Shown: positions 10,231 to 58,409, counted from the stretch's first letter. The stretch: DNA of 64,000 nucleotides from Candidatus Woesearchaeota archaeon (GCA_018302785.1 JAGVZF010000013.1:10787-74786), one strand, 5' to 3'. Numbers and translations are program-made. Notes: generated by a model not told the origin, from the sequence alone.

Positions 10231-10620
10231 ATGACTGAGTTAGTTTACTGTGCTACACCATCGAGATTGAGTAATCTTACTGAAACAATTGTTGACTACG
10301 TTGCTAAAGAAGGTTACGCTCCCCTCCATCCCTTTTTGGCTATGCCATATAAATATTTTGAAGGGGGTATAGTTGGTAGAAACAAAACAATAGAGTATTG
10401 TTTTAGATTAGTAGACATTTGCCCTCACTTTTGGTTATTTGGAATATCGGAAGGTACACTTGAGGAATTAAGTCGTGCACAATCAAGTGACAAGATATTT
10501 AGATTTCCATTTTTGCATTTTGACCCAGAATGGAATGAGTTTTATCAGAATCTTGCCTCAAAGTATGGTGATCCATTAGCGAATCTATTTCCGATTCAGA
10601 GATTAACTAAGCAGAACTAG
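10231..10620 (+). CDS. Hypothetical protein, possibly with a nucleoside 2-deoxyribosyltransferase-like (DUF4406-like) fold
   Basis: LVYCATPSR...AKEGYAPLHPF and DICPHFWLFGISEGTLEELSRA resemble the iYiAGP / cD.v..l.gw..S.G...E pattern. Weak, from memory. Confidence 0.3.
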   Translation: MTELVYCATPSRLSNLTETIVDYVAKEGYAPLHPFLAMPYKYFEGGIVGRNKTIEYCFRLVDICPHFWLFGISEGTLEELSRAQSSDKIFRFPFLHFDPEWNEFYQNLASKYGDPLANLFPIQRLTKQN

Positions 10621-13000
10621 CATCCTTAAAAAAATGAAATATATTTTCTCCACTTGTTCTTTTTGCTGCTAATCTGTCACAAATCATTCTATGTTCGGTA
10701 TAACATTTTTTGCAATTACCCTTTTCCTCTTGCATACTTTTGTATCTTATATAATAATTAGGATCTTCTTTAAGAACTTCTTTTTCTGTAGCTATTTTAC
10801 AAACCAATTGAGGCATTATCATATGCATAGGATCATCTGAATCAAATAAAGTAATAGGAGAAAATCTTTGTGGTCTATATATTGAATGTGGTATTGTAAT
10901 TACTCTTTTGGTGTAGAATGCATTCTTATTCAATACAGTATAAATATTGTGAATTTCTATGTTCAATTCACTTTCGACAATTTGTTTTAGAAGCCATCCA
11001 TAAAAAAATGTTTGTTGTAAATATTTGTGTTCAATATATGGTTTTACACTATTAGTTTTTGTATCAATTATTACAATATCATAATTACTGTCATCTCTCT
11101 TTAAAAATAGATACGCATCAGGATGCATAGAAACTGAAAAACTAACTCCATCAATATTTAAGCTCCAAGAGAAAGGTGTTTCTGTGTAAAGATTCGAAGG
11201 TTTTGGTTCTAAGCCTGCTCTAGTTAATGTATCATAATGAACTAATCCTTCTAAGGGTGAACTTGACAATCTATGTATAGCTGTTCCTCTGATTTGCGCA
11301 GAAGACTCTAAGGTAGTTTTATCAGCAAATCTGAACAACTCTTCTAAGGTTTCAGAAGATGCATATTGAATTTGTTCTCTTACCAAACTCTTTGCAACAC
11401 TTTCAGACAAACCGCTAATTAGTTTTTCTAATGTACATCCTACATCTAATACACCACTCTGTTGAAACCTTTCCAAAGATCTAGTATCAACTTTTCCTCC
11501 TGTTGGCAGTCCTAATTCAGAACCCCTAAAATCTGCTTTTTCTTCCTTGATAGCACGCATGTTAAAAAATCCAGAAATCATATCTGAAGTTACAATTCTC
11601 TTACCGTCTAATTCTACAAACCATCTTCTATTAGACTTATCTAACGCTCTTAAACCATGATAAATTGATGCATCAGTCTTTAATAACTCTACAATCCTTG
11701 GTTCAATTCTGCAAAAACCTATCCTATGCACATAAGAAAAATCTCTTAAAATAGAAATCTCTCTTTCAGATAAAATTTCATCAGCTAAGTCTTGCAAATT
11801 AGGATGTTTATCTCCCAAATTTTCTTCAACTAATAAGAATGGGTATTTCCCACTAGAATCATATCTAACTATTTCTTGAATTTTAGGTCTAGTTAAACTA
11901 ACAGTTCTTCTTGAGTATTGATTGCTCCAAGTCATATACATATTATCAAATAAACCTATTAACCTAGCCATGGCAGTCGGATGACAGATTCCTAAAAAAG
12001 GCATTCTCTCAGGAGTATTAGCCATTATACCATGGTCCCCACCAACAAAATGAAATCTTAGTGGTTTTCCACTATAATATGCTGAATCATTAACTATTCT
12101 AGCACTATCTGATGTTTTCTCCATATATAAGGGAATTCCATTTAAATCATAGTTTCTTAAGGTTTTTACCACAAAGGGAAATAGCTGATCTAAAACCCAT
12201 GCAAATTTTAAAGCCATAATTTGATTATTACAATGTATTTCATATCTTTTCAATTCCAATGACCTTTGAAAATCAAATATTCTATCGTGGTTATCCTCTG
12301 GCATTAATAATTCTGGAGAAGATTGAAGTGCACTTCTGAATCTTTCAAAAGAAAACATATTAGGATCAAATCTTGAATTACCTTGTTTGGGGGATGTATC
12401 TTCAAATTTAGCTAATGTACCAAAACCAATTCCATCTATTTCAGCATCAATTTCTCTCTCAATTCTTTCTCTTAATATATGTTCAAGTCCAAAATTTCCA
12501 CCCTGTTGCAAAATTCTTTGAATATAAGTAACAGGTTGAACATAAAATAACAAAAATTGATCTAAAAACTCTATTGGAAACCTTTCGTTTATCTGTTCAA
12601 TAAATAATGTTGAAAAAAGATGCAAATTAGAAAATGGATCAATTCCTTCTTTTCTTCCGTTAATAAGACTCGTAGCAGTTAAACCATTAATTAAAATCGG
12701 AAGTTTATCTCTAAATAAATTTTCATCAATGGACAATTCCCTAACAAGTAAATCTTCATGCATTAGATATTTTTTCATCCTTCCAGTTTTTCTTGGGTTA
12801 GCAGATTCACCAAAAGCATTGTCTAAAATATTAACTAAACTTAAACCTGTACCACTTGGGCCAAGAATAAAATTTCGTTTTTTAATTGCACTTGCTAATT
12901 TAACAGAATCATCTAATTCTTTTTTCGCCAAAAATGGTCTACATATTTCTATTAGACTATATAATCTTTTTATCGAAAAAATAGTATCTACTTCTGCCAT
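10607..13000 (-). CDS. 797-aa protein: unknown about-520-aa N-terminal region with a degenerate P-loop, plus a C-terminal Cas4/AddB-like PD-(D/E)xK nuclease with a 4-Cys cluster
   Basis: Residues 572-667: GTAIH, HPD(628)AY, IID(646)TK(648)T, and QQTFFY (QxxxY). Cys522 plus C763-x2-C766-x7-C774, as in Fe-S RecB-family nucleases. The N-terminal ILGPSGTGLS is Walker-A-like with Lys replaced by Leu. Confidence 0.6.
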   Translation of the reverse strand: MAEVDTIFSIKRLYSLIEICRPFLAKKELDDSVKLASAIKKRNFILGPSGTGLSLVNILDNAFGESANPRKTGRMKKYLMHEDLLVRELSIDENLFRDKLPILINGLTATSLINGRKEGIDPFSNLHLFSTLFIEQINERFPIEFLDQFLLFYVQPVTYIQRILQQGGNFGLEHILRERIEREIDAEIDGIGFGTLAKFEDTSPKQGNSRFDPNMFSFERFRSALQSSPELLMPEDNHDRIFDFQRSLELKRYEIHCNNQIMALKFAWVLDQLFPFVVKTLRNYDLNGIPLYMEKTSDSARIVNDSAYYSGKPLRFHFVGGDHGIMANTPERMPFLGICHPTAMARLIGLFDNMYMTWSNQYSRRTVSLTRPKIQEIVRYDSSGKYPFLLVEENLGDKHPNLQDLADEILSEREISILRDFSYVHRIGFCRIEPRIVELLKTDASIYHGLRALDKSNRRWFVELDGKRIVTSDMISGFFNMRAIKEEKADFRGSELGLPTGGKVDTRSLERFQQSGVLDVGCTLEKLISGLSESVAKSLVREQIQYASSETLEELFRFADKTTLESSAQIRGTAIHRLSSSPLEGLVHYDTLTRAGLEPKPSNLYTETPFSWSLNIDGVSFSVSMHPDAYLFLKRDDSNYDIVIIDTKTNSVKPYIEHKYLQQTFFYGWLLKQIVESELNIEIHNIYTVLNKNAFYTKRVITIPHSIYRPQRFSPITLFDSDDPMHMIMPQLVCKIATEKEVLKEDPNYYIRYKSMQEEKGNCKKCYTEHRMICDRLAAKRTSGENIFHFFKDASSA

Positions 13001-13053: not shown

Positions 13054-15705
13054 ATGAAAACAGACTTTGTCACTTTATTTCAGCAACCATCATCAAAAAT
13101 TCAGAAACTTAAGGCAGGTATAGACGTAACAGTTTGGGAATATGATGAAACTACTGGAATTAGTAATCCACATGTTCGCAGATTAACTTTAGAACAAAGA
13201 GTTCCGACAAGTTTATCAAGAAATCCTGATTTACAAACTTTAACAGAATCTACTGAAAAATATAAAACTGCATTAATAGATATTTATAAAACTAAACTTG
13301 ATAGAATAAATGAACAAATCAAGTCTGCTCGACCTGGAACAAAGCTGAGAGCAAAACTTGACGAAGAAAAGATTATTATCGAAGAATTCTTATCCAACAT
13401 AAACAGATTAATAAGATTAGAAGGACCTTTTTCCAATGGAAATTATCAAGCTTTCCATTTAGTTTCACCATTTATTGAGCATCAGCTATCAGACATATTT
13501 TTATGTTCAGAGTTTGTAAAAAATAGATATTTAAATAATACACGTCAGACTGCCATCGCACTTAATTTTCCATTTGGCATTATTAATGAAAGTAATGAAC
13601 CTACAGGTGCAAGAATTTCATTAGAAACTTTATTAGAAGCAAAATCTCTGGCTATTGATTTCGAAACTCATAATTGGAGATCAATACAGATAAAAGATGA
13701 GCTTCGGAGAGAGCCTTTAGAATTATTAAGAAAAAGATTCTTAGAACTAGTTTCTCAACATAACATTTCCTTTGATTCAAGAAGATTAGAATGGATGGAT
13801 ATAGAAGACTATGTTAAAGAAATTTCAGATTTAATAAATTTAACTAAAGATGAAAGAATTACTGTTGCTGCACTTATTAACCTGAGAGACAATGAAAATT
13901 ATGTTGTTACAACTTTTAATCCAGATCATGATTCAATAATGGTCAGGATTCCTGGACGTATTGAGGACAGAGAAGTAAGAATTGTTAAGGCATCAAATCA
14001 GTTCTCTCTAATACAAAAAGTAAATAGATTAATTCAACAAATAAATCCCCTTTTTATGTATGGCCATAATCAGATGGGGTTTGATTACCAAACTGCAGAA
14101 AGACTTACGAGAAATTTTAGAGCCGGAGTTAATGAAAAAAAACCACTGCAAAAAGCACAAGCTGCAGCAGGATTTATCACTCAAAGAATTCTACCTGGTA
14201 GAATAGATATTGATCCTTCTTTATATGCATTAAATTACTTAGATTGTTATAATAATAGACTTGACACTGTTTTTGAGAATGTAATTGGAATAAAATCTGC
14301 CAAGTCTCTCACTCAAGAGCAATTAGAAATTAAAACCAGAAACGCAGAAGCTGGAAATCAACATGATATTGATGATGTATTGTCATATTCAGCTCAAGAT
14401 GCCATGAAGTCCTTTTTACTAGGAGAAAGATTAAAACTGGAACACCTAATTCTCAGCACAATTCACTATAGTTTACCAGCTAGAATTGATTCTACTGGTA
14501 GAAAAACAATAGGTGAGGATTATTGGGTGAACTGGTGGTATAAACATAAAAAAACATTTCCCTCAAGAGAAATAATTAAATCTGTTGCTACCATAACAAC
14601 TAATGGAGAAGATAGACAAGTAAGGTACGAAGAGTTTAGACCAATAGATATTTTACAAAGTGAACTTAAGAGAATACCTGTACAAAAAGGAATTCATGAA
14701 GGGAAGCTTATTGCAGTGTTTCCATTTGCAGATGCATTTAATCAATTACTCTCTAGAGATCCAAATGTTGATTCCTTATATAAAAGGTTACAAGAAACTA
14801 GTGACCCCAAAGAAAAAATTAGAATCTTGAAATCAATAGATTCTTTACTTGAATATCCATTATTTATGCTTCTTGATAAAGCTACATCTGAAACAAAATT
14901 TGCTGCTTCATTTATGCTTGGATTTTCAGGATTAGAAAAAGAGAAATACCTAAGAATTACAGATAAAAATCTAGAAATGATAATCCATTTAGCCCAACCA
15001 GCACAAATAATTAATAGTTGTAGAGAATATTTGGTGCTGCAACCATCAGTAGATTTACAAATTCTAAATCAACTAACACAAAGTAATATAGCAATATATT
15101 TAGGAGATGGAAGATTTTTGTCAGGGTCAAGAGGAAGATATGCAGGAATTATAAATGATGAATTTATAATGTTTGGTATAGCAGACTTCCATTCAAACAA
15201 GGGATTTAGATGTGACTTTGAACGAAATTTCTATGAGTATTTTTTAAGACAAACTCTAATTAGCGGTGATCCAAAATCTGCTTTACTTTACTTAGTAGGC
15301 AGAGCTAAACAACTATCTCAAGGAACTATAAGTCAAGATGAGTTAAAATTTGATAGAACTGCTAGAAGAGACCATACTGATTATTCGGCTCAGGCAAGAC
15401 AAAGTTACATTAGAGACATGGCAGAACAAAAAACCAAAAAAGGAGATATTGTAAGGCCAAGAAGGACAGTTCAAGAACTTCAATATAAATTCTTTGGTAT
15501 TACTCCTAAAGCAGAAGATCAATATGGTTTATTTGAGGATACTTCAACAATAACTGCAGAAACTACTAAAGTTGGGACCATTTCTGAAGTAGTAGAATGG
15601 TTATTTATACCTAAAACAATTAAGGAAGTAAGACCAATTTTGGAGAAATTATACCATGGCAAAGGTAGAGTAGAAGACGTTGATGCTATATTAAGCCACA
15701 CCTAG
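13054..15705 (+). CDS. Family-B DNA polymerase homolog with intact DEDDy 3'-5' exonuclease motifs but substituted polymerase catalytic motifs
   Basis: ExoI LAID(202)FE(204)T, ExoII GHN(339)QMGFD(344)Y, ExoIII Y(445)SAQD(449). The motif A position reads AVFPFADAFNQ (canonical lDFxSLYPS). Motif C reads IYLGDGRF (canonical YGDTDS). A downstream KGFRCDFERNFYEYFL resembles the PolB thumb-proximal region. Confidence 0.65.
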   Translation: MKTDFVTLFQQPSSKIQKLKAGIDVTVWEYDETTGISNPHVRRLTLEQRVPTSLSRNPDLQTLTESTEKYKTALIDIYKTKLDRINEQIKSARPGTKLRAKLDEEKIIIEEFLSNINRLIRLEGPFSNGNYQAFHLVSPFIEHQLSDIFLCSEFVKNRYLNNTRQTAIALNFPFGIINESNEPTGARISLETLLEAKSLAIDFETHNWRSIQIKDELRREPLELLRKRFLELVSQHNISFDSRRLEWMDIEDYVKEISDLINLTKDERITVAALINLRDNENYVVTTFNPDHDSIMVRIPGRIEDREVRIVKASNQFSLIQKVNRLIQQINPLFMYGHNQMGFDYQTAERLTRNFRAGVNEKKPLQKAQAAAGFITQRILPGRIDIDPSLYALNYLDCYNNRLDTVFENVIGIKSAKSLTQEQLEIKTRNAEAGNQHDIDDVLSYSAQDAMKSFLLGERLKLEHLILSTIHYSLPARIDSTGRKTIGEDYWVNWWYKHKKTFPSREIIKSVATITTNGEDRQVRYEEFRPIDILQSELKRIPVQKGIHEGKLIAVFPFADAFNQLLSRDPNVDSLYKRLQETSDPKEKIRILKSIDSLLEYPLFMLLDKATSETKFAASFMLGFSGLEKEKYLRITDKNLEMIIHLAQPAQIINSCREYLVLQPSVDLQILNQLTQSNIAIYLGDGRFLSGSRGRYAGIINDEFIMFGIADFHSNKGFRCDFERNFYEYFLRQTLISGDPKSALLYLVGRAKQLSQGTISQDELKFDRTARRDHTDYSAQARQSYIRDMAEQKTKKGDIVRPRRTVQELQYKFFGITPKAEDQYGLFEDTSTITAETTKVGTISEVVEWLFIPKTIKEVRPILEKLYHGKGRVEDVDAILSHT

Positions 15706-15780
15706 CCCAGCAATAATTTTATAATCTTTGCTGTAATCTAAATTGAATAGTAAATATAAAATGTATATACAAATACTAAA

Positions 15781-16788
15781 ATGACATCTATTCTAGGTAT
15801 TCAAACAGATGCGGAAGATGATGAAGTTGTTATGTTGGCCGCAGACACCCAAGTAACTCTATATTCGGGTCCTAATTATAGTGAAGAAAAAGATCCTTAC
15901 CCACAATCTAAGGTTAGGGAAGTAAATGAGTCTACAGTAATTGCAATGTGTGGCACTTACGACAGATATGTTGAAAATCTTTTCACTTATTTAAGGGATA
16001 AAGATTATAGAAAATTTCTGTCAACCTTACATGATAGAAAAACAATACCAGAATTGGATAATATCTCAAATCAACTAAGGTATTTGAAAAGAGACGTACG
16101 CAGGAGATTAAGAGAACTTCTAGAAAGTAGAAGTCAGCCTACATCAGAGTTGGAAGAATTTGTGATCCAATTAACAAAAGGTCAACCTGAAACTAAATCA
16201 GCACTAGATTTATTTATTACAGGCTTAATACAAAATATTCTAACACCCCCAGACCCTATACAAGAAGCACTTAGAAGCAGCGTATTCTATGAGGCTGCTG
16301 ATTTAAACAGACACTTCACAAGAAGAAATAGAGAAAAGGAAGAAGAAATTGGGTTAGATGACTATACAGAATTTGCAATCGCCACAAATTCTCCACTTGG
16401 GTTAAACACTGTAGATCTATTCGGTGGAATAAAGAAATTACAAATCGGATCTGGCGATATAGATTATATTAGTATGGGAAGTGGCTCTGAATTTTTGGAC
16501 CAATACTTAAGACAGGGTACTTATAGGGATGATCCAGAACTAAAAGAATATTCCCCAGAGTTTCACACAAATTTTAGAATTGATTCTATCTCATCTAGAT
16601 GCGCCTATGAACTTGCTTATGGAGCTATGATGTATGCAACAAAAAGAGATCAACATAGTGGTGGAGTTATTGAAATCGTGACACTTCGCCCAAATATTAT
16701 AATCCCCCATAAAGTTACGATCAAGAAAGCAATTCGTGAAGCAGAGAAGGCAGCTGTAAGATCTGAGGCGGCAAAATTGTCTTACTAA
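15781..16788 (+). CDS. Proteasome-beta/HslV-like Ntn-hydrolase without a propeptide and with an about-100-aa helical insertion
   Basis: MTSILGI..VVMLAADTQVT (Thr directly after Met, the aaDt motif), SKVREV..VIAMCGTYD (Lys33-like), YISMGSGSEFL (GSGS), and ATKRDQHSGGVIEIVTL. Confidence 0.6.
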   Translation: MTSILGIQTDAEDDEVVMLAADTQVTLYSGPNYSEEKDPYPQSKVREVNESTVIAMCGTYDRYVENLFTYLRDKDYRKFLSTLHDRKTIPELDNISNQLRYLKRDVRRRLRELLESRSQPTSELEEFVIQLTKGQPETKSALDLFITGLIQNILTPPDPIQEALRSSVFYEAADLNRHFTRRNREKEEEIGLDDYTEFAIATNSPLGLNTVDLFGGIKKLQIGSGDIDYISMGSGSEFLDQYLRQGTYRDDPELKEYSPEFHTNFRIDSISSRCAYELAYGAMMYATKRDQHSGGVIEIVTLRPNIIIPHKVTIKKAIREAEKAAVRSEAAKLSY

Positions 16789-16831: not shown

Positions 16832-17185
16832 ATGAAACCAAAGACTAGAAAGACAGATGAAGGGCTTTTAAGGCTAATTAGAGAGCTAAAAAAGACTTCA
16901 AATAAAGAAAATGTTAATATCTGGAAAGCAGTAGCTCAAAATCTAGAAAAACCTACTAGAAAAAGGGCTAACGTCAACCTTTATAAAATTGATAAATATG
17001 CTAAAGACAATGAATATATTATAGTTCCTGGAAAAGTCTTAGGAGTAGGAGAAATTAGTAAAAATATTAATATTGCTGCTTATAAATTCTCAGATTCAGC
17101 TAAATCAAAAGTAAAAAATAAAATGTCAATACAAGAATTATTAAGAAAAAACCCAAAAGGAAATAAAACAAGAATAATAATATGA
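16832..17185 (+). CDS. rpl18e: 50S ribosomal protein L18e
   Basis: Typical L18e sequence (NIWKAVAQNLEKPTRKRANVNLYKI...IIVPGKVLGVGE) and the conserved L18e-L13-S9 order. Confidence 0.88.
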   Translation: MKPKTRKTDEGLLRLIRELKKTSNKENVNIWKAVAQNLEKPTRKRANVNLYKIDKYAKDNEYIIVPGKVLGVGEISKNINIAAYKFSDSAKSKVKNKMSIQELLRKNPKGNKTRIII

Positions 17186-17601
17186 TAATTGACGGAGAAA
17201 ATTTAATTTTAGGAAGACTTGCAAGTTATGCTGCAAAAAAAGCATTACTTGGAGAAAAAGTAGATATTATTAATTGTGAAAAAATAGTTATAAGTGGAAG
17301 GAAAAAAGCAATTTTTCTTGATTTAAAAGAAAGATATGCAAGAGGCGAATTTATAAAAGGTCCTTTTCCAAGTAGAAGATGCGACAGATTTGTAAGAAGA
17401 ACAATAAGAGGTATGCTTCCATATAATCAATATAAAGGAAAAAGCGCATTTAAAAGAGTAATGTGTTATAGAGGAATTCCTGATAAATTCAAAAATGAAA
17501 AGCACGAAACTGTAGAAAAGCTTAATATTGTAAAAACAAAAAGCTTAAAATACATTAATTTAAAACTAGTAGAAAAATTCTTAGGATATGGCCAAAATTA
17601 G
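17182..17601 (+). CDS. rpl13: 50S ribosomal protein L13 (uL13)
   Basis: IIDGENLILGRLASYAAKKALLGEKVDIINCEKIVISG. Overlaps L18e by 4 nt. Confidence 0.9.
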   Translation: MIIDGENLILGRLASYAAKKALLGEKVDIINCEKIVISGRKKAIFLDLKERYARGEFIKGPFPSRRCDRFVRRTIRGMLPYNQYKGKSAFKRVMCYRGIPDKFKNEKHETVEKLNIVKTKSLKYINLKLVEKFLGYGQN

Positions 17602-17989
17602 TAATGCATCTGGAAGAAAGAAAAGAGCTATTGCTCGAGCAACAGTAACAGACGGATCTGGTTCTATTTTAATAAATTCAATTCCATTAGATGAATATAG
17701 AGATAATATCTCAAGAATGAAAATTATAGAACCATTAATATTAGCAGATTCTTTAAAAGATAAAGTAAATATTAAAGTAGATGTTCATGGCGGAGGTTAT
17801 TCTGCTCAAGCAGATGCTGTAAGACTTTCAATTGCAAAAGGTCTTGTTAAATACTCAAACGATAAAAAACTAAAAGAAACTTACTTAAATTATGATAGAA
17901 ATCTTCTTATAGCAGATGTAAGAGTGGCAGAAAGTTCAAAACCTAATGATTCTAAGCCAAGGGCAAAACGACAAAAAAGCTATCGCTGA
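17588..17989 (+). CDS. rps9: 30S ribosomal protein S9 (uS9)
   Basis: GRKKRAIARATV..., VHGGGYSAQADAVRLSIAKGL, and the C-terminal KRQKSYR. Confidence 0.9.
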   Translation: MAKISNASGRKKRAIARATVTDGSGSILINSIPLDEYRDNISRMKIIEPLILADSLKDKVNIKVDVHGGGYSAQADAVRLSIAKGLVKYSNDKKLKETYLNYDRNLLIADVRVAESSKPNDSKPRAKRQKSYR

Positions 17990-18136: not shown

Positions 18137-19396
18137 ATGAACAACGACGACAAATACATAGATTTATTAGAATTTTTGCCACAAAATATTATATGTGGGA
18201 AATTAGAAAAACAATTCCCACTAAGTGTAAAATTAGATAATAAATATTTGTCTCTTTCATATATTACAAATTTGTCAAACCAAACTGGACAAGTTGGAGT
18301 TAAAGAATATTCTTTAACAATTCCAAGATTTCTTTTCAAAAATATTAGAACATTTGAAGTTATTGGATTGCTCCAAGCTGAAATGGGAAAAACTAACAAT
18401 GGAAATCTATCATTTGCAAATCATGAATACAAATTAATTAATTATGTTTTATATTGGTTTAAAAAAGAATTAGAATTTGATGTGAAAAATTGGAAATGGA
18501 GCATAAAACTAAATATGCAAGAACCTACTGACTTAAATTATAAACCCAAAATAGAGAACAAAGTAATAAAGCATTGGACGGAAAGAACTAAAATAACATT
18601 AGAACAATCTTATCCCAAAAAAGTAACTTATATCAGTAATACCAAAAATATCAAATTAAAAGATCATGATTATGGCACGCTGGTTTTAGAACATAAGAAT
18701 AATTTATTTAGTCAAATTATAAAGAATTTTGTAAAAATAATTACATATAGAGAAATAGTAAACTATGAAGCACAACTAATCCAGGGATATATGAAGGCTA
18801 TAATTGCTGGAGAAGGTTGTATAGAAATTTCAAAACAGGATAAAAAGTTTAGGGTACATATTTCGGCATCAAAAGAAGAAGAGAAAGAAATATTCTATCA
18901 ATGTCTAAGAAAGTTAGGGGTTGAAAGCATAAAATACAAGGGAGATAAATTAGTGATTTCAAAGCGTAAAAACAATGTCCAACTTCTTAAACAACGTTTA
19001 ATGACTTTATCTCCAGCAAAATACGCCAAATTTCTAAACATGATGCAACAATATCCAAACATCAAAGAAGAAACTGGCTACTTCAAAGAAAAAGGCAAAA
19101 ACGTTTGGAATAAAATTCCTCAAGAAATAATAGATAAAATTATTGAACTTTATAACTCTGGAATTACAAACACAAAAGAAATAGCAGAAAGATTAGGATT
19201 ACATATTCTAAAAGTTCAAAGAGTTCTCCAAATTAATAATTTAGGAAAAAGAATAACAACAATTCCAGAATCCAAAAGAATGGAAATTGCCAAATATGTT
19301 AAAGATCATCCCGAATTAAATCATGAACAAATTGCAAAACAATTTAATGTTAGTAAATCTGCAGTTAGTAGAGCTAACTTAAAGTATAATCTCTAA
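18137..19396 (+). CDS. Free-standing LAGLIDADG-like (double-motif) protein with two C-terminal HTH modules
   Basis: VIGLLQAEMGK and YMKAIIAGEGCIE (LAGLIDADG-type motifs with Glu). C-terminal ITNTKEIAERLGLHILKVQRVL and NHEQIAKQFNVSKSAVSRA. Confidence 0.6.
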   Translation: MNNDDKYIDLLEFLPQNIICGKLEKQFPLSVKLDNKYLSLSYITNLSNQTGQVGVKEYSLTIPRFLFKNIRTFEVIGLLQAEMGKTNNGNLSFANHEYKLINYVLYWFKKELEFDVKNWKWSIKLNMQEPTDLNYKPKIENKVIKHWTERTKITLEQSYPKKVTYISNTKNIKLKDHDYGTLVLEHKNNLFSQIIKNFVKIITYREIVNYEAQLIQGYMKAIIAGEGCIEISKQDKKFRVHISASKEEEKEIFYQCLRKLGVESIKYKGDKLVISKRKNNVQLLKQRLMTLSPAKYAKFLNMMQQYPNIKEETGYFKEKGKNVWNKIPQEIIDKIIELYNSGITNTKEIAERLGLHILKVQRVLQINNLGKRITTIPESKRMEIAKYVKDHPELNHEQIAKQFNVSKSAVSRANLKYNL

Positions 19397-20470: not shown

Positions 20471-20698
20471 ATGCAAATTGATACGACAAAAATGAGTTCT
20501 AGAGGGCAAGTAGTTATACCTTTAGAAATGAGAAAAGACATTAAAGAAGGAGATAAGTTAATTGTTATTAGAAAAGATGATGAAATAATTATTAAAAAGT
20601 CTATTCCTGAGTCAGCTCTTTTATCTGAAAAATCATTGGCTAAAGCATGGCTGTCAAAAGAGGATGAAGAGGCCTTTGCATATTTTCAAAAAAAATGA
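20471..20698 (+). CDS. AbrB/SpoVT/MazE-type antitoxin
   Basis: SSRGQVVIPLEMRKDIKEGDKLIV. Its stop overlaps the toxin start (ATGA). Confidence 0.75.
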   Translation: MQIDTTKMSSRGQVVIPLEMRKDIKEGDKLIVIRKDDEIIIKKSIPESALLSEKSLAKAWLSKEDEEAFAYFQKK

Positions 20699-21027
20699 AG
20701 TTTAAAAAGTATGATATTATTTTAGTTAATTTTCCTTTCTCAGATCTTAAGACAAGTAAAATCAGACCGGCAGTGGTTATTAAGTCATTGGAAGGGGAAA
20801 ATACTATTCTTTGTCAAATCACAACTAAAAAACGAAGTATATCTAAATACCAAGTAGTTTTAAAACGAAAATCTTGTGAAGGAGATATAAGATTTGACTC
20901 TAATATTTATATTGATATGATATTTACTCTACATGAAAGCCTTGTAATTGGTAAAATTGGCTATATAAGAGATGAAAGAATTAAAGAAGAAATTCAGAAT
21001 AAAATAAAAGAAATGTTTGATCTCTAA
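20695..21027 (+). CDS. MazF/PemK-family toxin (endoribonuclease-type)
   Basis: KYDIILVNFPFSDLKTSKIRPAVVI is typical of PemK/MazF. Paired with the upstream antitoxin. Confidence 0.75.
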   Translation: MKFKKYDIILVNFPFSDLKTSKIRPAVVIKSLEGENTILCQITTKKRSISKYQVVLKRKSCEGDIRFDSNIYIDMIFTLHESLVIGKIGYIRDERIKEEIQNKIKEMFDL

Positions 21028-39053: not shown

Positions 39054-39491
39054 ATGCAGTGTTCTTACTGTGATTCATTAGAAAACAAAGTAACCAATAA
39101 AAGAATGTCGCCTCAAGGCATTAGAAGAAGACGAGAGTGCCTTAAATGTAAAAAAAGATTTACAACTTATGAAAAAATTGAGATAAGCTCCCTTTATGTT
39201 ATAAAAAAAGATGGAAGAAGAGAAAAATTTAGTAGAGAAAAACTAGAAATAGGTGTTGAAAAAGCCTTTGAGAAAAGACCTGTTTCAAAAGAAATAATAA
39301 ACAAAATGGTAAATGAAGTTGAAGAATATCTAAGAAAAAGAGGAAAAGAAGTGAAAAGTTCTTTAATTGGACAAGTAGTAATGAAGAAACTAGAAAAAAT
39401 TGATAAGGTAGCTTATGTAAGATTTGCTTCTGTGTATAAACAATTTAAAGACATATCTGATTTTAAAAAAGAGTTTAAGGAGCTAAAATAA
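39054..39491 (+). CDS. nrdR: Transcriptional repressor NrdR (zinc ribbon plus ATP-cone)
   Basis: MQCSYCDSLENKVTNKR...RRRRECLKCKKRFTTYEKIE, then an ATP-cone (VIKKDGRREKFSREKLEIGVEKA...YVRFASVYKQF). Confidence 0.88.
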   Translation: MQCSYCDSLENKVTNKRMSPQGIRRRRECLKCKKRFTTYEKIEISSLYVIKKDGRREKFSREKLEIGVEKAFEKRPVSKEIINKMVNEVEEYLRKRGKEVKSSLIGQVVMKKLEKIDKVAYVRFASVYKQFKDISDFKKEFKELK

Positions 39492-39493
39492 AA

Positions 39494-42400
39494 ATGGTAG
39501 AATATAATCATTTAACTGAAGGTCCAGCATATGTAGAACCAATTAAATCATCAAGAAAAAATGGGTTAGAGCAAAGAATAGAATGGTACAAAGATAGATC
39601 AGAAATAGAAGGTCTTAAAGAAAATCAAATAAAAATAATTAAAAAAATCTATCTCAAAGATGACACAAAATATTCTGCATGGCTTGGCAGAGTTGCAAGA
39701 AACGTAGCATTAGGAGAATTAATTTATGTTCCTGAATTTCATCAAAGAATTTTTGAAGGAGTAGATTATAAAACAGAAACTAAAACAACTGTTGATGGTC
39801 AAACAACTGATGCATATCTTTTACACGATAATAAAGGTGTAGGGCATTCTGCACAAAGAGACCCTAATTTTAATATGTTTAGGGCAAACCTCTATATGCT
39901 TAGACAAGAAAACCAAGAAGCACAGTCACTTGTAGACAAAGTAGAAGAAGAATTTTACAGCATGCTTTCTCAATTCAGGTTTATTCCTAATAGCCCAACA
40001 TTAATGAATGCAGGACGTGATCTCCAACAACTTAGTGCATGCTATGTTTTACCTATAGATGACACTATTGAATCATGGGGATTAACTACACTAAATACAA
40101 TGCTCATTCACAAAAGCGGAGGAGGTACTGGTTTTTCAGGAAATCGTGTAAGACCAAGAGGTGATACTGTTAAGGGATCGTATGGAACAGCATCCGGACC
40201 TATATCAGTTTTCGAAATTATTGATAAAGCAACTCAAGAAGTAAAACAAGGTGGTACAAGAAGAGGTGCAAATATGGGCATACTTCCATATAATCATCCT
40301 GACATAAGAGAATTTATTGAATACAAAAAGAAAAATCCAGGACATTTAGAAAATTTTAATGTCTCTGTAGGAATAACTCAAGAATTTGTAAACGCAGTAG
40401 AAAAGGGAGAAACATATCTTCTAATAAATCCAAGAACAGGAAAAGTTCAAGTAGACCAAAATGGCAATAAAGTATCGGAAAATGCTTCAGAAATTTGGAA
40501 TTTAATCATTCAAAGTGCTTGGGAAACAGGTGATCCAGGATATGTAGTAATAGATAGAATTAACAATTCTACTTCAAATCCAACTCCTGCAATTGGTAAT
40601 ATTGAAGCAACAAATCCTTGTGTGGCTGAAGGCACACTAGTTAACACTCCAAATGGTTTTGTCCCAGTTGAAAATATTAAAGTCGGAGATCTTGTAAGCA
40701 CAGTTTTTGGATATGGACCAGTAAAAACTATAGAAATACATGAAAATACTCCAGTTTTCAAAGTTAAATTTTCAGATGGAGGAGAACAAATAGTTACAGC
40801 AGCACATAGGTATTTTGCAATTAAGAAAGGTAGTCAAAGCAAAAAACTTTCCGATATTAGGTTAGATCAATTACAACCTGGAGATTATGTAAGGGTAAAA
40901 TCAACATTACTGCAAAACTATTCTCCTGAAGATTATTTTAAAGGATTAAAAACTGGAATTCTTCTTGGAGATTGGTGTTATGCAAAAAAAATGCTTTCAA
41001 AAGGCACGGTCAAAATAGCTTCCAATCAAGAGGACATAGAATACAATAAAAACATTAAAATGCTTTTTGGAAATTTATCATTTCAAAAAGATGATACTAG
41101 CTCAATTAGTAAATCAGTTAATATGATTCTTTCTAATGGTCAACAACTTCTGCAAGAAGTTCAGCTTAATAGCGCCTATTCATTTGAGAAAAGTTTTGAC
41201 ATCACTAATATTAGAACTAAAGACATGGTATTAGGAATTTTAGACGGCCTTCTTGCAACAGACGGAGACATTAATTTAAAGTCTAACCATCCTCAAATTA
41301 GATTTGTAACATCTTCTGAAGCTTTAGCACAAAACATTAGAAGACTTCTACTAATGATAGGATGTCATGGTAGAATTTCAAAGAGTTTCTATGATGACGG
41401 AGGCAAGATAAATGGAAGAAAAATAATTAGAAAACATGACAAATTCTCAATTTGCTTATCTGGTGAAAGTGCTAGAACCTTTGCCAAATATTCATTACTG
41501 AAGAACATCAATCCTAAAAAAGGAAATCAATTGCAAAATTTAAGAAAACAATGGATGGCTACAGGAAACACATGGAAAGCAAGAATTATTTCAATTGAAC
41601 CTATGGGAAATGCTAAAGTATTTGATTTATATAATGAAGCTAGTGATACATGGATAACTGATGGATATGTACAACGAGGTTGTGGTGAACAGCCTTTATT
41701 GCCTAATGAACCATGCAATTTAGGAAGTATTAATCTCTTTGCTCATATGAGAAGAGATGATGGAAGAGCACTTCTAGAAATAGGAACTGGGGAAGATATT
41801 ACTGAATTTAATAGAGCTACTGTAAATGGTTCAGCTTACTTAGACATGCAAGCTTTAGAGAGAACAGTCAAATCAGCAGTTAGATTCCTAGATAATGTAA
41901 TTGACGTAAATAATTATCCCTTACCAGAAATAGAAGTAATTGCTAAAAGTAATAGAAGAATAGGTCTTGGTATTATGGGATTAGCTGAAACATTTTCAAT
42001 ACTTGGCATAGCCTATGATTCTGAAGAAGCAGTTGCAAAAACAAGAGGAGTAATGAAATTTATAAATGAAAAAGCTCATGATGAATCCAAAAAACTTGCC
42101 CAAGAAAGAGGTATATTCCCAAACTTTAAGAATAGTATATTTGATGAAAACGGAAGTCATTTTAGACCAAATCAAACTAGTCCAGAATATTATCCAAGGA
42201 ATTGTGCAGTAACCACAATTGCTCCAACAGGAACTATAGCATTAGCAGCAGGATTAGATGGTCAAGGCATTGAACCATTTTTTGCTATTGCCTTAGAAAG
42301 ATACACAGCAGATGGATTGGACGCAAAAAGACATGGAGAACAACCTAAAGACAGAGACATATTAAAGATAATGAATACTTTATTTGAAGAAGTAGCACAG

Positions 42401-43417
42401 GAAAATAATTATTTTGGTTTAACCAGAGATGAATTATGGCAAAGAATAAAGAATAGTAATGGTTCAGTTAGACATCTAGAAGAAATTCCCGAAGAAATTA
42501 GAAGAGCATTTCCATCAGCTCATGACATTGACTTAACATATCATGTTGGACATCAGGCCGCAACTCAAGAACATACTGATAATGCTGTTAGTAAAACAAT
42601 AAATTTCCCAAAACAAGCTACTGTTGAAGATGTAAATGCAGCTTATTGGCTAGCATACAAATCAGGTTGTAAAGGAATTACTATATACAGAGATGGAAGT
42701 AAAAAAGATCAAGTTCTTAACTTAGAAGGAAAACTAGCACAAGAGCCTTCACTAATACAAGTAGAAGTTCAAGATACACATGCAAGACTTGAGGTAAGTG
42801 CCAATGCTGGACATTATCGAATAACAAGGCCAGAAAAAAATAAAGACAAGTTACATGTAATTTTAGCAGACGATCTTTATGTAGATAGTAGTGGAAATGC
42901 TTTCCTTTTACCAAGAAGAGATTTCCAAGTAAGAGCTCCTCCTGGTCAAGAAACATCTGTTGATTTTGGAATGGAAGGACTATTGTTGACAGAAATCCTT
43001 AAAGGAGAAGATCCTAATTATGCAAAAATAGTTACATGGCTAAAGTCACCTCGATCAAATGAAGAAGAGGGAATAGGTCCTACTATACTTTGGACTAAAC
43101 ATCACGCAGTAGGAATTGCTTTGGAATATCATCTTTTAAAGAATGGAATTATAGCATATAATACAGATAATAATACTTTAGAAAATAAAGTAAGAAAAAG
43201 AGATTTAAGAAAAGTAGAAGACGAAGAAGAAAAGAATACAATACTACAAAGATCTAGAAAAACTAATGGATCAATAAATCAAATTACTGCAGGTAATACT
43301 ATAGGTAATAAGCTGTTTGAATGTCAACAATGTGGCTCGAATGAATTTACATACCATGCAGGCTGTCATGATCCTGTATGTGTTCCATGTGGTTGGAGCA
43401 GCGGCTTATGTGGCTAA
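39494..43417 (+). CDS. nrdJ: Ribonucleotide reductase, class II (adenosylcobalamin-type, NrdJ-like) with one intein
   Basis: FIPNSPTLMNAG. Radical-Cys motif ATNP/CGEQPLLPNEPCNLGSINL, split by the intein. TIAPTGT, and a C-terminal Cys-rich tail CQQCGSNEF..CHDPVCVPCGWSSGLCG. The class is assigned from the NPCGEQ motif only. Confidence 0.8.
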   Translation: MVEYNHLTEGPAYVEPIKSSRKNGLEQRIEWYKDRSEIEGLKENQIKIIKKIYLKDDTKYSAWLGRVARNVALGELIYVPEFHQRIFEGVDYKTETKTTVDGQTTDAYLLHDNKGVGHSAQRDPNFNMFRANLYMLRQENQEAQSLVDKVEEEFYSMLSQFRFIPNSPTLMNAGRDLQQLSACYVLPIDDTIESWGLTTLNTMLIHKSGGGTGFSGNRVRPRGDTVKGSYGTASGPISVFEIIDKATQEVKQGGTRRGANMGILPYNHPDIREFIEYKKKNPGHLENFNVSVGITQEFVNAVEKGETYLLINPRTGKVQVDQNGNKVSENASEIWNLIIQSAWETGDPGYVVIDRINNSTSNPTPAIGNIEATNPCVAEGTLVNTPNGFVPVENIKVGDLVSTVFGYGPVKTIEIHENTPVFKVKFSDGGEQIVTAAHRYFAIKKGSQSKKLSDIRLDQLQPGDYVRVKSTLLQNYSPEDYFKGLKTGILLGDWCYAKKMLSKGTVKIASNQEDIEYNKNIKMLFGNLSFQKDDTSSISKSVNMILSNGQQLLQEVQLNSAYSFEKSFDITNIRTKDMVLGILDGLLATDGDINLKSNHPQIRFVTSSEALAQNIRRLLLMIGCHGRISKSFYDDGGKINGRKIIRKHDKFSICLSGESARTFAKYSLLKNINPKKGNQLQNLRKQWMATGNTWKARIISIEPMGNAKVFDLYNEASDTWITDGYVQRGCGEQPLLPNEPCNLGSINLFAHMRRDDGRALLEIGTGEDITEFNRATVNGSAYLDMQALERTVKSAVRFLDNVIDVNNYPLPEIEVIAKSNRRIGLGIMGLAETFSILGIAYDSEEAVAKTRGVMKFINEKAHDESKKLAQERGIFPNFKNSIFDENGSHFRPNQTSPEYYPRNCAVTTIAPTGTIALAAGLDGQGIEPFFAIALERYTADGLDAKRHGEQPKDRDILKIMNTLFEEVAQENNYFGLTRDELWQRIKNSNGSVRHLEEIPEEIRRAFPSAHDIDLTYHVGHQAATQEHTDNAVSKTINFPKQATVEDVNAAYWLAYKSGCKGITIYRDGSKKDQVLNLEGKLAQEPSLIQVEVQDTHARLEVSANAGHYRITRPEKNKDKLHVILADDLYVDSSGNAFLLPRRDFQVRAPPGQETSVDFGMEGLLLTEILKGEDPNYAKIVTWLKSPRSNEEEGIGPTILWTKHHAVGIALEYHLLKNGIIAYNTDNNTLENKVRKRDLRKVEDEEEKNTILQRSRKTNGSINQITAGNTIGNKLFECQQCGSNEFTYHAGCHDPVCVPCGWSSGLCG
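40619..41680 (+). mobile_element. 354-aa intein with a LAGLIDADG homing-endonuclease domain, inserted immediately before the RNR radical Cys
   Basis: Block A CVAEGTLVNTPNGFVPVENI, block B IVTAAHRYF, LAGLIDADG motifs GILLGDWC and ILDGLLATDGD, block F KVFDLYNEASDTWITDG. It ends in VQRG and is followed by CGEQPL. Confidence 0.75.
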
Positions 43418-57590: not shown

Positions 57591-58409
57591 CTAATCTTTA
57601 ATATAGGAATCTAGAACTTCTTTAAGTATTTTTTGTTTTCTCTTTATTGAAAAATTAATTAAATTATGATATCTAACTAAATTTTCTTTACCATAAATAT
57701 AAACTTCATACTGCATTTTAGTACTTCCAAACCCAGAATGAATCCTACTTTTGATTTTATGATTTATTCTAAGATCACTCAAAAATTTACATAATAAATT
57801 AACAGTATCTTTATTAGAATTAGAAAATGAAATCCACCTGCAAGCTCTGCGTCTATTGGATAAATTGTAACCAGCTACTGAACCTTCTGAATCAAAAAGG
57901 CCTTTCAAAAAGTATATTTTGTGGTTTTTATTGGGAAAAGAGTTTTCATTAAATGCAAATTGTCTTATGAATTTAGCTACCTCAACAGAGCTTAAACGTA
58001 CATGATATAAATTATTATAGCCTAAACCAAAACTTACTGGTAGCTTAGCCCACCTTTCCAACTTTTCTTTAAAGTAAATAGCGAAATCTTTATCTTTAAC
58101 ACGAAGAATTAATCCTGCTGAAGTTCCATGTGAAGATTTACTGTAAAAACAATGACCATCACCACGCTCTACTCCTAATATGTATGCTAGTTCTTTGGAG
58201 GATCTGAAGGCAGATTTTGGAAGTCTATGGTGTTTTATATCATTTATTTTCAATCCAGCTGCCTTTTTAGATCTGTTGAATCCTCCAAAATATCTTAAGC
58301 AAGCTTGATATAGTATTGCAGGAATTTCTCGAGCACTTGGAGAATGTTTTAATTCTTTGCTTCTAGCCTTTAGTTCAGCAACAATCTTTTTCTTAGACCA
58401 CTTTTTCAT
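57591..58409 (-). CDS. Free-standing double-motif LAGLIDADG homing-endonuclease-like protein
   Basis: LAYILGVERGDGH and IYFLKGLFDSEGSV. N-terminal repeat RSKELKHSPSAREI...YFGGFNRSKKAAGL. Confidence 0.7.
   Translation of the reverse strand: MKKWSKKKIVAELKARSKELKHSPSAREIPAILYQACLRYFGGFNRSKKAAGLKINDIKHHRLPKSAFRSSKELAYILGVERGDGHCFYSKSSHGTSAGLILRVKDKDFAIYFKEKLERWAKLPVSFGLGYNNLYHVRLSSVEVAKFIRQFAFNENSFPNKNHKIYFLKGLFDSEGSVAGYNLSNRRRACRWISFSNSNKDTVNLLCKFLSDLRINHKIKSRIHSGFGSTKMQYEVYIYGKENLVRYHNLINFSIKRKQKILKEVLDSYIKD

Follow-up and report, generated by a model that had tools for sequence, protein, structure and literature searches.

A survey of the nr database by Fuchs, Alva and Lupas in 2021 brought to light 22 new proteasome homologues (PMC8665760). 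Among the families treated in that survey, PHI is devoid of a propeptide, is extended in the H1/H2 region by a long helical insertion and is closely connected to the proteasome clusters; it is found in bacteria as well as in archaea, including those grouped as 'Other Archaea', sometimes carries a C-terminal coiled coil, and has a gene context that is uninformative (PMC8665760). According to the same study, the position of the pore loop is the one that follows H2, and an insertion between H3 and H4 might stand in the way of double-ring stacking (PMC8665760).

Propeptide-less homologues that possess modules of their own offer a view of how proteases that form their own compartments were constructed and kept under control at a time when there were neither alpha rings nor AAA+ caps. 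A clade of such proteins from DPANN archaea is useful in this regard, since it grades from short forms close to the canonical subunit into long forms that bear a module of ~90 residues, since this module is without a counterpart in the PDB, and since the structural model is confident enough for structural and biochemical study of the insertions as cap, gate or specificity lid. The gene described here is a long form of this clade and resides in a stretch of 64,000 nucleotides from a Candidatus Woesearchaeota archaeon (GCA_018302785.1, JAGVZF010000013.1:10787-74786), hereafter the window, to which all coordinates refer. The window has a G+C content of ~29% and carries archaeal genes such as those for L18e, L13 and S9, a TFB-like ORF and an intein-containing ribonucleotide reductase (RNR). 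It comes from a population of the Rifle-aquifer type and lies on contigs of up to 109.9 kb. Members of the clade bear the NCBI name 'hypothetical protein'; the present finding constitutes a well-supported annotation of such a protein and no new principle.

Gene and active site

The peptidase gene (15781-16788, + strand) encodes 335 amino acids, and its assignment to the long forms of the DPANN family is based on the ORF, its homologues, a family alignment, an AF2 model and Foldseek matches to 20S beta. The reading frame extends from ATG to TAA, and this ATG is the first start codon past the upstream in-frame stop. All conservation counts given below as x/57 refer to one alignment of 57 family sequences, termed A1.

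The second codon of the gene (aca, 15784-15786, + strand) specifies Thr2, the predicted N-terminal nucleophile after loss of Met and hence the equivalent of Thr1, which is Thr in 54/57 and Ser in 3/57 sequences; in the A1 family profile, M-T-T is aligned with the mature N-terminus of archaeal beta. An earlier note on this DNA had placed the Thr right behind Met, with no propeptide, and the family bears this out, for Thr or Ser stands at position 2 in 57/57 aligned members. The nucleophile is residue 2 of the protein in 55/57 members, the two exceptions resembling miscalled starts, and a propeptide is hence absent. Methionine aminopeptidase removes Met ahead of small residues, Thr included; the mature protein should thus begin with Thr.

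Three further positions on the + strand are invariant (57/57 each), namely Asp22 (codon gac in AADTQV, 15844-15846; Asp17 equivalent), Lys44 (aag in SKVREV, 15910-15912; Lys33 equivalent) and Gly58 (ggc, 15952-15954), which corresponds to Gly47 of the oxyanion hole. These are followed on the same strand by G233-S-G-S236 (16477-16488), the equivalent of Gly128-Ser129-Gly130 (G233 in 55/57, Ser or Thr at 234 in 52/57, G235 in 54/57), and by D290-Q-H-S293-G294 (16648-16662), which supplies the equivalents of Asp166 (Asp in 52/57), Ser169 (Ser or Thr in 55/57) and Gly170 (Gly in 48/57). The latter motif belongs to the block R289-D290-Q-H-S293-G-G (D290 codon at 16648-16650), in which the best local match to both beta5i and TIGR03634 is located. 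Moreover, the spacing of 14 residues from K44 to G58 is identical to that between Lys33 and Gly47 of 20S beta, and the 3 residues from D290 to S293 are identical to the Asp166-Ser169 spacing.

The motifs listed in the earlier note (Met-Thr, the Lys33 equivalent, GSGS and RD..SGG) could all be read in the window protein, and they are not a product of chance, since their positions are invariant or nearly so in a family with 69 homologous cluster representatives. As judged from the alignment, the active-site residue set of 20S beta is intact in the window protein and conserved, or nearly so, throughout the family, and the gene product is predicted to be an active member of the proteasome family that hydrolyses by means of an N-terminal threonine.

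Homologues, fold and distribution

The homologues were collected by an exhaustive phmmer search against 1.84 billion representatives, which yielded these 69 cluster representatives and puts the size of the family at 69 or more. A word-indexed protein search returned a fragment of the protein itself and one member only (1 match for the single sequence, 2 for the 57-sequence profile) compared with the 69 obtained by phmmer, and negative results of indexed searches for low-G+C DPANN proteins are not to be taken as absence.

On its own, the window protein shows sub-threshold similarity to several proteasome-related models: it matches PF00227 with an E-value of 6e-4 (19.9 bits versus a cut-off of 22.4), TIGR03634 with 4e-5 over residues 269-303 (23.3 bits versus a cut-off of 224), the PHROG 'HslV family' with 3e-5 and, in the PDB, beta5i with 0.015. 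The A1 profile retrieves archaeal 20S beta as the best PDB match, with E-values of 5e-11 and 1e-10 and coverage of both halves of the protein, ahead of the weaker matches to alpha (2e-7) and HslV (4e-5). In a similar manner, TIGR03634 is matched by 48/57 members (best E 2e-13) and PF00227 by 40/57, while alpha models are matched by 4/57 and the HslV models of NCBIfam by 1/57 (E 3e-3 to 6e-3). The AF2 model of the window protein, computed with the family alignment, attained a pLDDT of 92.3 and a pTM of 0.88, and a Foldseek search with it gave 986 PDB matches at E <= 0.001, headed by 20S beta5, beta5i and the beta subunit of T. acidophilum (E ~1e-9, target TM 0.68). The match to phage HslV-like proteins is confined to the core.

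Hence, the peptidase is a proteasome-family Ntn hydrolase of the beta fold, and archaeal 20S beta is its closest known relative. The class proposed in the earlier note, a proteasome-like Ntn peptidase, is upheld by the profile match to archaeal beta and the fold match to 20S beta, and its distinctness from a canonical beta subunit is reflected in the scores that the window protein attains relative to the cut-offs of TIGR03634 and PF00227.

Every member with a named source stems from Candidatus Woesearchaeota, Pacearchaeota or Nanoarchaeota, so that, judging by the sequences of stated origin, the clade occurs in DPANN archaea only. One locus (L026, CAYSWQ010000014.1) is labelled 'uncultured Methanosarcinales archaeon'; its G+C content is 31%, and its ArsR and IscS neighbours recur at a Woesearchaeota locus (L025), for which reasons it is probably a mislabelled or contaminated bin. 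A scan of IMG/VR revealed no viral copy of the family.

The helical module and further additions

The family forms a graded series with respect to the length between the Gly47 equivalent and the next core strand, which amounts to 48-68 residues, and thus is near canonical, in short forms (230-255 aa), 69-103 residues in intermediate forms, and 125-145 residues in long forms (310-355 aa), among them the window protein. Insertions are the sole difference between long and short forms: the latter, taken as the forms of 230-290 aa, are devoid of most of the additions and feature the same active site. In the window protein, G58 and S234 are 176 residues apart versus 82 for Gly47-Ser129 in 20S beta, which corresponds to a net insertion of ~94 residues. 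The earlier note had postulated a charged helical insertion of about 100 residues between the conserved halves, and the spacing agrees well with that estimate. Charged residues (16 R, 7 K, 14 E and 11 D) account for 35% of the 137 positions from 60 to 196, a stretch that the model predicts to be all-helical.

The lineage-specific part of this region comprises residues ~75-158 (16003-16254, + strand), which are helical in the model (76-84, 90-100, 104-114, 123-132 and 141-154) and missing from short forms. The extra residues come after the first helix past Gly58 and before a conserved pair of helices (159-166 and 170-185; 16255-16335, + strand) that, by conservation and model DSSP, is assigned to the end of H1 together with H2. 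This segment, P159xxxA163I...E171LxxLN176R, is common to long and short forms, and its N176 is invariant. The secondary structure of the model and the comparison with short forms thus appear to place the module of ~90 residues inside the layer formed by H1 and H2 rather than behind H2, where a short acidic loop follows instead (residues 186-196, RNREKEEEIGL; 16336-16368, + strand). The loop occupies the position of the proteasome 'pore loop' and is short and acidic family-wide, with a mean of 7.7 residues, of which 2.9 are acidic and 0.2 basic.

Two further elements were noted in the second half of the protein. From S234 to D290 there are 56 residues, as opposed to 37 in 20S beta, and the spacing and the model assign the surplus to an extra segment between H3 and H4 (residues 245-271, ~19 net; 16513-16593, + strand). 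It contains short helices (247-264) in the model, shows conserved Y248 and D251 in long forms and is largely missing from short forms. At the C-terminus, residues 311-333 (16711-16779, + strand) form a long, H5-like helix according to model DSSP, with an A-E pattern that is conserved in the family.

In the model, the helical module is packed rigidly against the core (pTM 0.88), and it retained a pLDDT of 86 when modelled alone. Comparison of the module alone with the PDB gave no significant match, neither by sequence (best E 0.04) nor by fold (best E 5.3); the module is therefore without structural precedent in the PDB.

The H1/H2 helix layer of 20S beta contacts the alpha ring, a topology reportedly described by Löwe et al. 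in 1995, and the apparent location of the module in this very layer is one of several points that speak against regarding the protein as the working 20S beta subunit of the organism, i.e. as a fast-evolving orthologue with an alpha partner encoded elsewhere. Such an identity would fit with archaeal beta being the closest family, with the IMG label '20S proteasome alpha/beta subunit' of two short forms, and with the finding that neither the window and the 22 kb adjoining its ends nor any other locus examined contained a second proteasome-like ORF. The 86 kb of contig covered in this way, however, represent <10% of a typical DPANN genome, so that the lack of other proteasome subunits therein says little, and a literature search returned nothing usable on whether DPANN possess 20S. 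As the protein moreover lacks a propeptide and scores far below the curated cut-off of TIGR03634 as well as below that of PF00227, this identity is considered very unlikely.

Gene neighbourhood

The peptidase gene is preceded by an ORF of 883 aa (13054-15705, + strand) that is PolB-like on the basis of a sub-threshold match to DNA_pol_B_exo1 (E 9e-4), and it is followed by the ribosomal protein genes for L18e, L13 and S9 (16832-17989, + strand; Pfam matches); both are regarded as context and not as parts of a common system. Divergent to the PolB-like ORF lies an ORF of 797 aa (10607-13000, - strand), for which a weak PD-(D/E)XK match was the only one. A comparison of the PolB-like and 797-aa proteins with the PDB by sequence gave no match.

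Between the PolB-like ORF and the peptidase extends an A/T-rich spacer of 75 nt (15706-15780, + strand), which includes the TATA-like stretches tttataat (15717-15724) and aaatataaaa (15752-15761). In a relative (locus L007), TTTTATAT is found ~30 nt before the peptidase ATG. At a genomic G+C content of 29%, such stretches are weak evidence. In view of the A/T-rich, TATA-like stretch ~20-29 nt before the ATG, it is possible that the peptidase gene is transcribed separately from the PolB-like gene.

The nearest relative, Woesearchaeota RIFCSPLOWO2_02_FULL_30_14, has a peptidase that is 37% identical and shares the entire block, consisting of the 787/797-aa ORF, the 868/883-aa PolB-like ORF, the peptidase, L18e-L13-S9 and the upstream genes. 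Among the proteins compared between the window and this lineage, the peptidase evolves fastest, followed by the PolB-like (42% identity) and 797-aa (47%) proteins, while L18e is 62% identical.

The gene was viewed in ~19 distinct neighbourhoods, in which the PolB-like neighbour is confined to the lineage of the window and its nearest relative; the PolB-like and 797-aa genes are missing in the ~17 others. These contain unrelated housekeeping genes instead, including those for Lhr helicase, ABCE1, dUTPase, RNR and NrdR, for LonB, for an NFACT-domain protein, for IscS and ArsR with Ski2-like or DEAD-box helicases, for IleRS, for HtrA or a PD-(D/E)XK nuclease, and for ribosomal protein S2. No partner gene recurs across lineages in the ~19 neighbourhoods, in line with the absence of a conserved gene context reported for such proteasome homologues by Fuchs et al. 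2021 (PMC8665760). The LonB gene, at one locus, is the sole AAA+ neighbour, and neither a linked AAA+ unfoldase nor an HslU-like gene was seen in any of the ~19 neighbourhoods. 'Helicase' as a recurring conserved partner was considered and rejected, as the helicases in question are different ones (Lhr-type, Ski2-type and DEAD-box).

On these grounds, a function of the peptidase that is coupled to the PolB-like and the divergent nuclease-like protein, for instance in processing or degrading them, is regarded as exceedingly improbable. The genes for peptidase and PolB-like protein do lie on the same strand with a short spacer (75 nt here and 31 nt in L007), and the gene trio was kept between two lineages whose peptidases are otherwise quite diverged. 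However, the whole block is syntenic between these lineages, inclusive of L18e-L13-S9 and the upstream genes, so that its conservation reflects relatedness and not selection for adjacency; in addition, a PADLOC search with the peptidase and the PolB-like and 797-aa proteins gave no defence-system match. The position behind the PolB-like gene thus appears to be lineage-specific synteny, and a functional link is not supported. Of the interpretation offered in the earlier note, therefore, the protein class stands and the functional tie to the PolB-like gene is not borne out, given that this neighbour is present in two related lineages and absent from the rest.

Small ORFs abut the peptidase gene in some short and intermediate forms: at L013 (6717-8427), an ORF of 196 aa lies 23 nt upstream and one of 89 aa lies 1 nt downstream, and at L028 (3115-4244) and L029 (7678-8801) an ORF of 90 aa is located upstream. 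All of them are without a Pfam match and could be lineage-specific partners.

Further features were noted elsewhere in the window and just beyond it. The large subunit of RNR (1307 aa; 39494-43417, + strand), preceded by an NrdR-like gene (39054-39491), contains an intein with a LAGLIDADG endonuclease domain. Free-standing ORFs similar to LAGLIDADG-type homing endonucleases are found at 18137-19396 (+ strand), directly behind the L18e-L13-S9 genes, and at 57591-58409 (- strand), one of the two with HTH domains and the other with an HNH-associated repeat. A toxin-antitoxin pair of the MazE/PemK type is encoded at 20471-21027 (+ strand), and the 109.9-kb contig carries further genes for PIN/VapB and YafQ/ParE-type toxins just outside the window on either side (L043, L046).

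Proposed function

With slightly better than even confidence, sequence and model are taken to indicate a catalytically competent Thr hydrolase of the proteasome family that would operate as a self-assembling housekeeping peptidase and in which the helical module would provide an integral cap, gate or surface for docking. The Thr nucleophile would be exposed by the removal of Met1 through methionine aminopeptidase and not by autolysis, in which case it must fall to assembly or to the added parts to control activity. Self-assembly of the enzyme is held most likely, and it would constitute a compartmentalising housekeeping peptidase in protein quality control, comparable to HslV, BPH or an uncapped 20S. 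The module would be situated on the H1/H2 face, the one that docks the alpha ring in 20S, and this location suggests a cap, gate or docking surface that most plausibly takes the place of an alpha-like partner; its presumed orientation relative to the ring follows from predicted secondary structure and topology. In addition, the acidic post-H2 loop would line the entrance of the chamber, as it does in BPH.

The intact catalytic residues would be equally compatible with specific processing or ligase activity, and, as the main alternative, the protein may be pictured as a processing enzyme or transpeptidase similar to connectase, specific for its substrate and either monomeric or of low order, in which the module would serve as a lid over the Thr1 site. 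A large insertion modelled as rigidly packed on the core would suit such an enzyme, as would the lack of an AAA+ unfoldase partner in the neighbourhoods and the fast evolution of the peptidase relative to the adjoining L18e between the two syntenic lineages (37% versus 62% identity). Moreover, the ~19-residue insertion between H3 and H4, which could hinder ring stacking (PMC8665760), counts against a ring-forming protein. On the other hand, H1/H2 are kept, the insertion is located elsewhere than at the S3/S4 site of connectase, and the long H5-like C-terminal helix is typical of ring-stacking homologues. Finally, the short forms possess the same active site without the module, and catalysis therefore does not rest on the latter, which is accessory. 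The kept H1/H2, the H5-like helix and the module-less short forms favour a ring-forming peptidase, and the connectase-like alternative is deemed rather unlikely.

Extending the idea of a self-assembling peptidase, the protein might be the only proteasome-type protease of Woesearchaeota-type DPANN, i.e. a minimal proteasome encoded by one gene and capped by itself, which would have displaced 20S and in which the module would replace the alpha ring. This proposition is quite doubtful at present; if the reduced genomes of these organisms lack the canonical 20S, the family would also overturn the view of 20S as universal in archaea.

Comparison with known systems

Connectase resembles the window protein in being archaeal, in its proteasome-like fold and in an extra helical part by which entry to the active site could be regulated. 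It differs in that it is devoid of H1/H2 and carries a two-helix insertion between S3 and S4 (PMC8665760), whereas the DPANN protein keeps H1/H2, appears to accommodate the module within that layer, and has a canonical K44-G58 stretch with the helices following G58.

HslV and BPH share with the DPANN family the Met-Thr start, the exposure of the nucleophile by removal of Met and the single gene. Both are bacterial and compact, however, and lack the helical module; in particular, the HslV subunit comprises ~175 aa versus 335 aa, and the hslU-like neighbour is missing here. BPH has an acidic pore loop (PMC8665760), to which the acidic post-H2 loop of the DPANN family is similar. BPH and Anbu chains were not among the best 60 PDB matches of the A1 profile. 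Anbu is reportedly bacterial and encoded in an operon with ATP-grasp and transglutaminase-like genes (attributed to Valas and Bourne, 2008), while the hosts of the DPANN family are archaeal and such neighbours were not found at the family loci.

To 20S beta, as represented by TIGR03634 and PF00227, the protein shows the best match in sequence and fold, all active-site residues, and the identical Lys33-Gly47 and Asp166-Ser169 spacings. It is distinguished from 20S beta by the absence of a propeptide, by scores below the curated cut-offs, and by ~94 additional residues between Gly47 and Ser129 and ~19 between Ser129 and Asp166.

With PHI, as known from its published description, the DPANN family has much in common: both are propeptide-less and archaeal, with conserved catalytic triad and Gly47, a helical insertion in the H1/H2 region, proximity to proteasome subunits and no informative gene context, and some PHI proteins have a C-terminal coiled-coil helix. 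The differences concern the apparent site of the insertion, which in PHI comes after H1/H2 at the pore loop (PMC8665760), while alignment and DSSP place the extra residues of the DPANN family ahead of the conserved H2 segment and leave the post-H2 loop short and acidic. Furthermore, the DPANN family also possesses an H3/H4 insertion, a trait ascribed to PMI families (PMC8665760), and its named members are all DPANN, whereas PHI is represented by a protein from RefSeq; WP_012956871.1 is one of the PHI members. Woesearchaeota proteins of the DPANN family were already in nr by the time of the 2021 PHI survey. Set against PHI by its description, the DPANN clade probably lies inside this family and would otherwise be an uncatalogued sibling; either way, the gene encodes an uncharacterised enzyme of a kind, the propeptide-less homologue with a helical insertion, that had already been catalogued in 2021 (PMC8665760).
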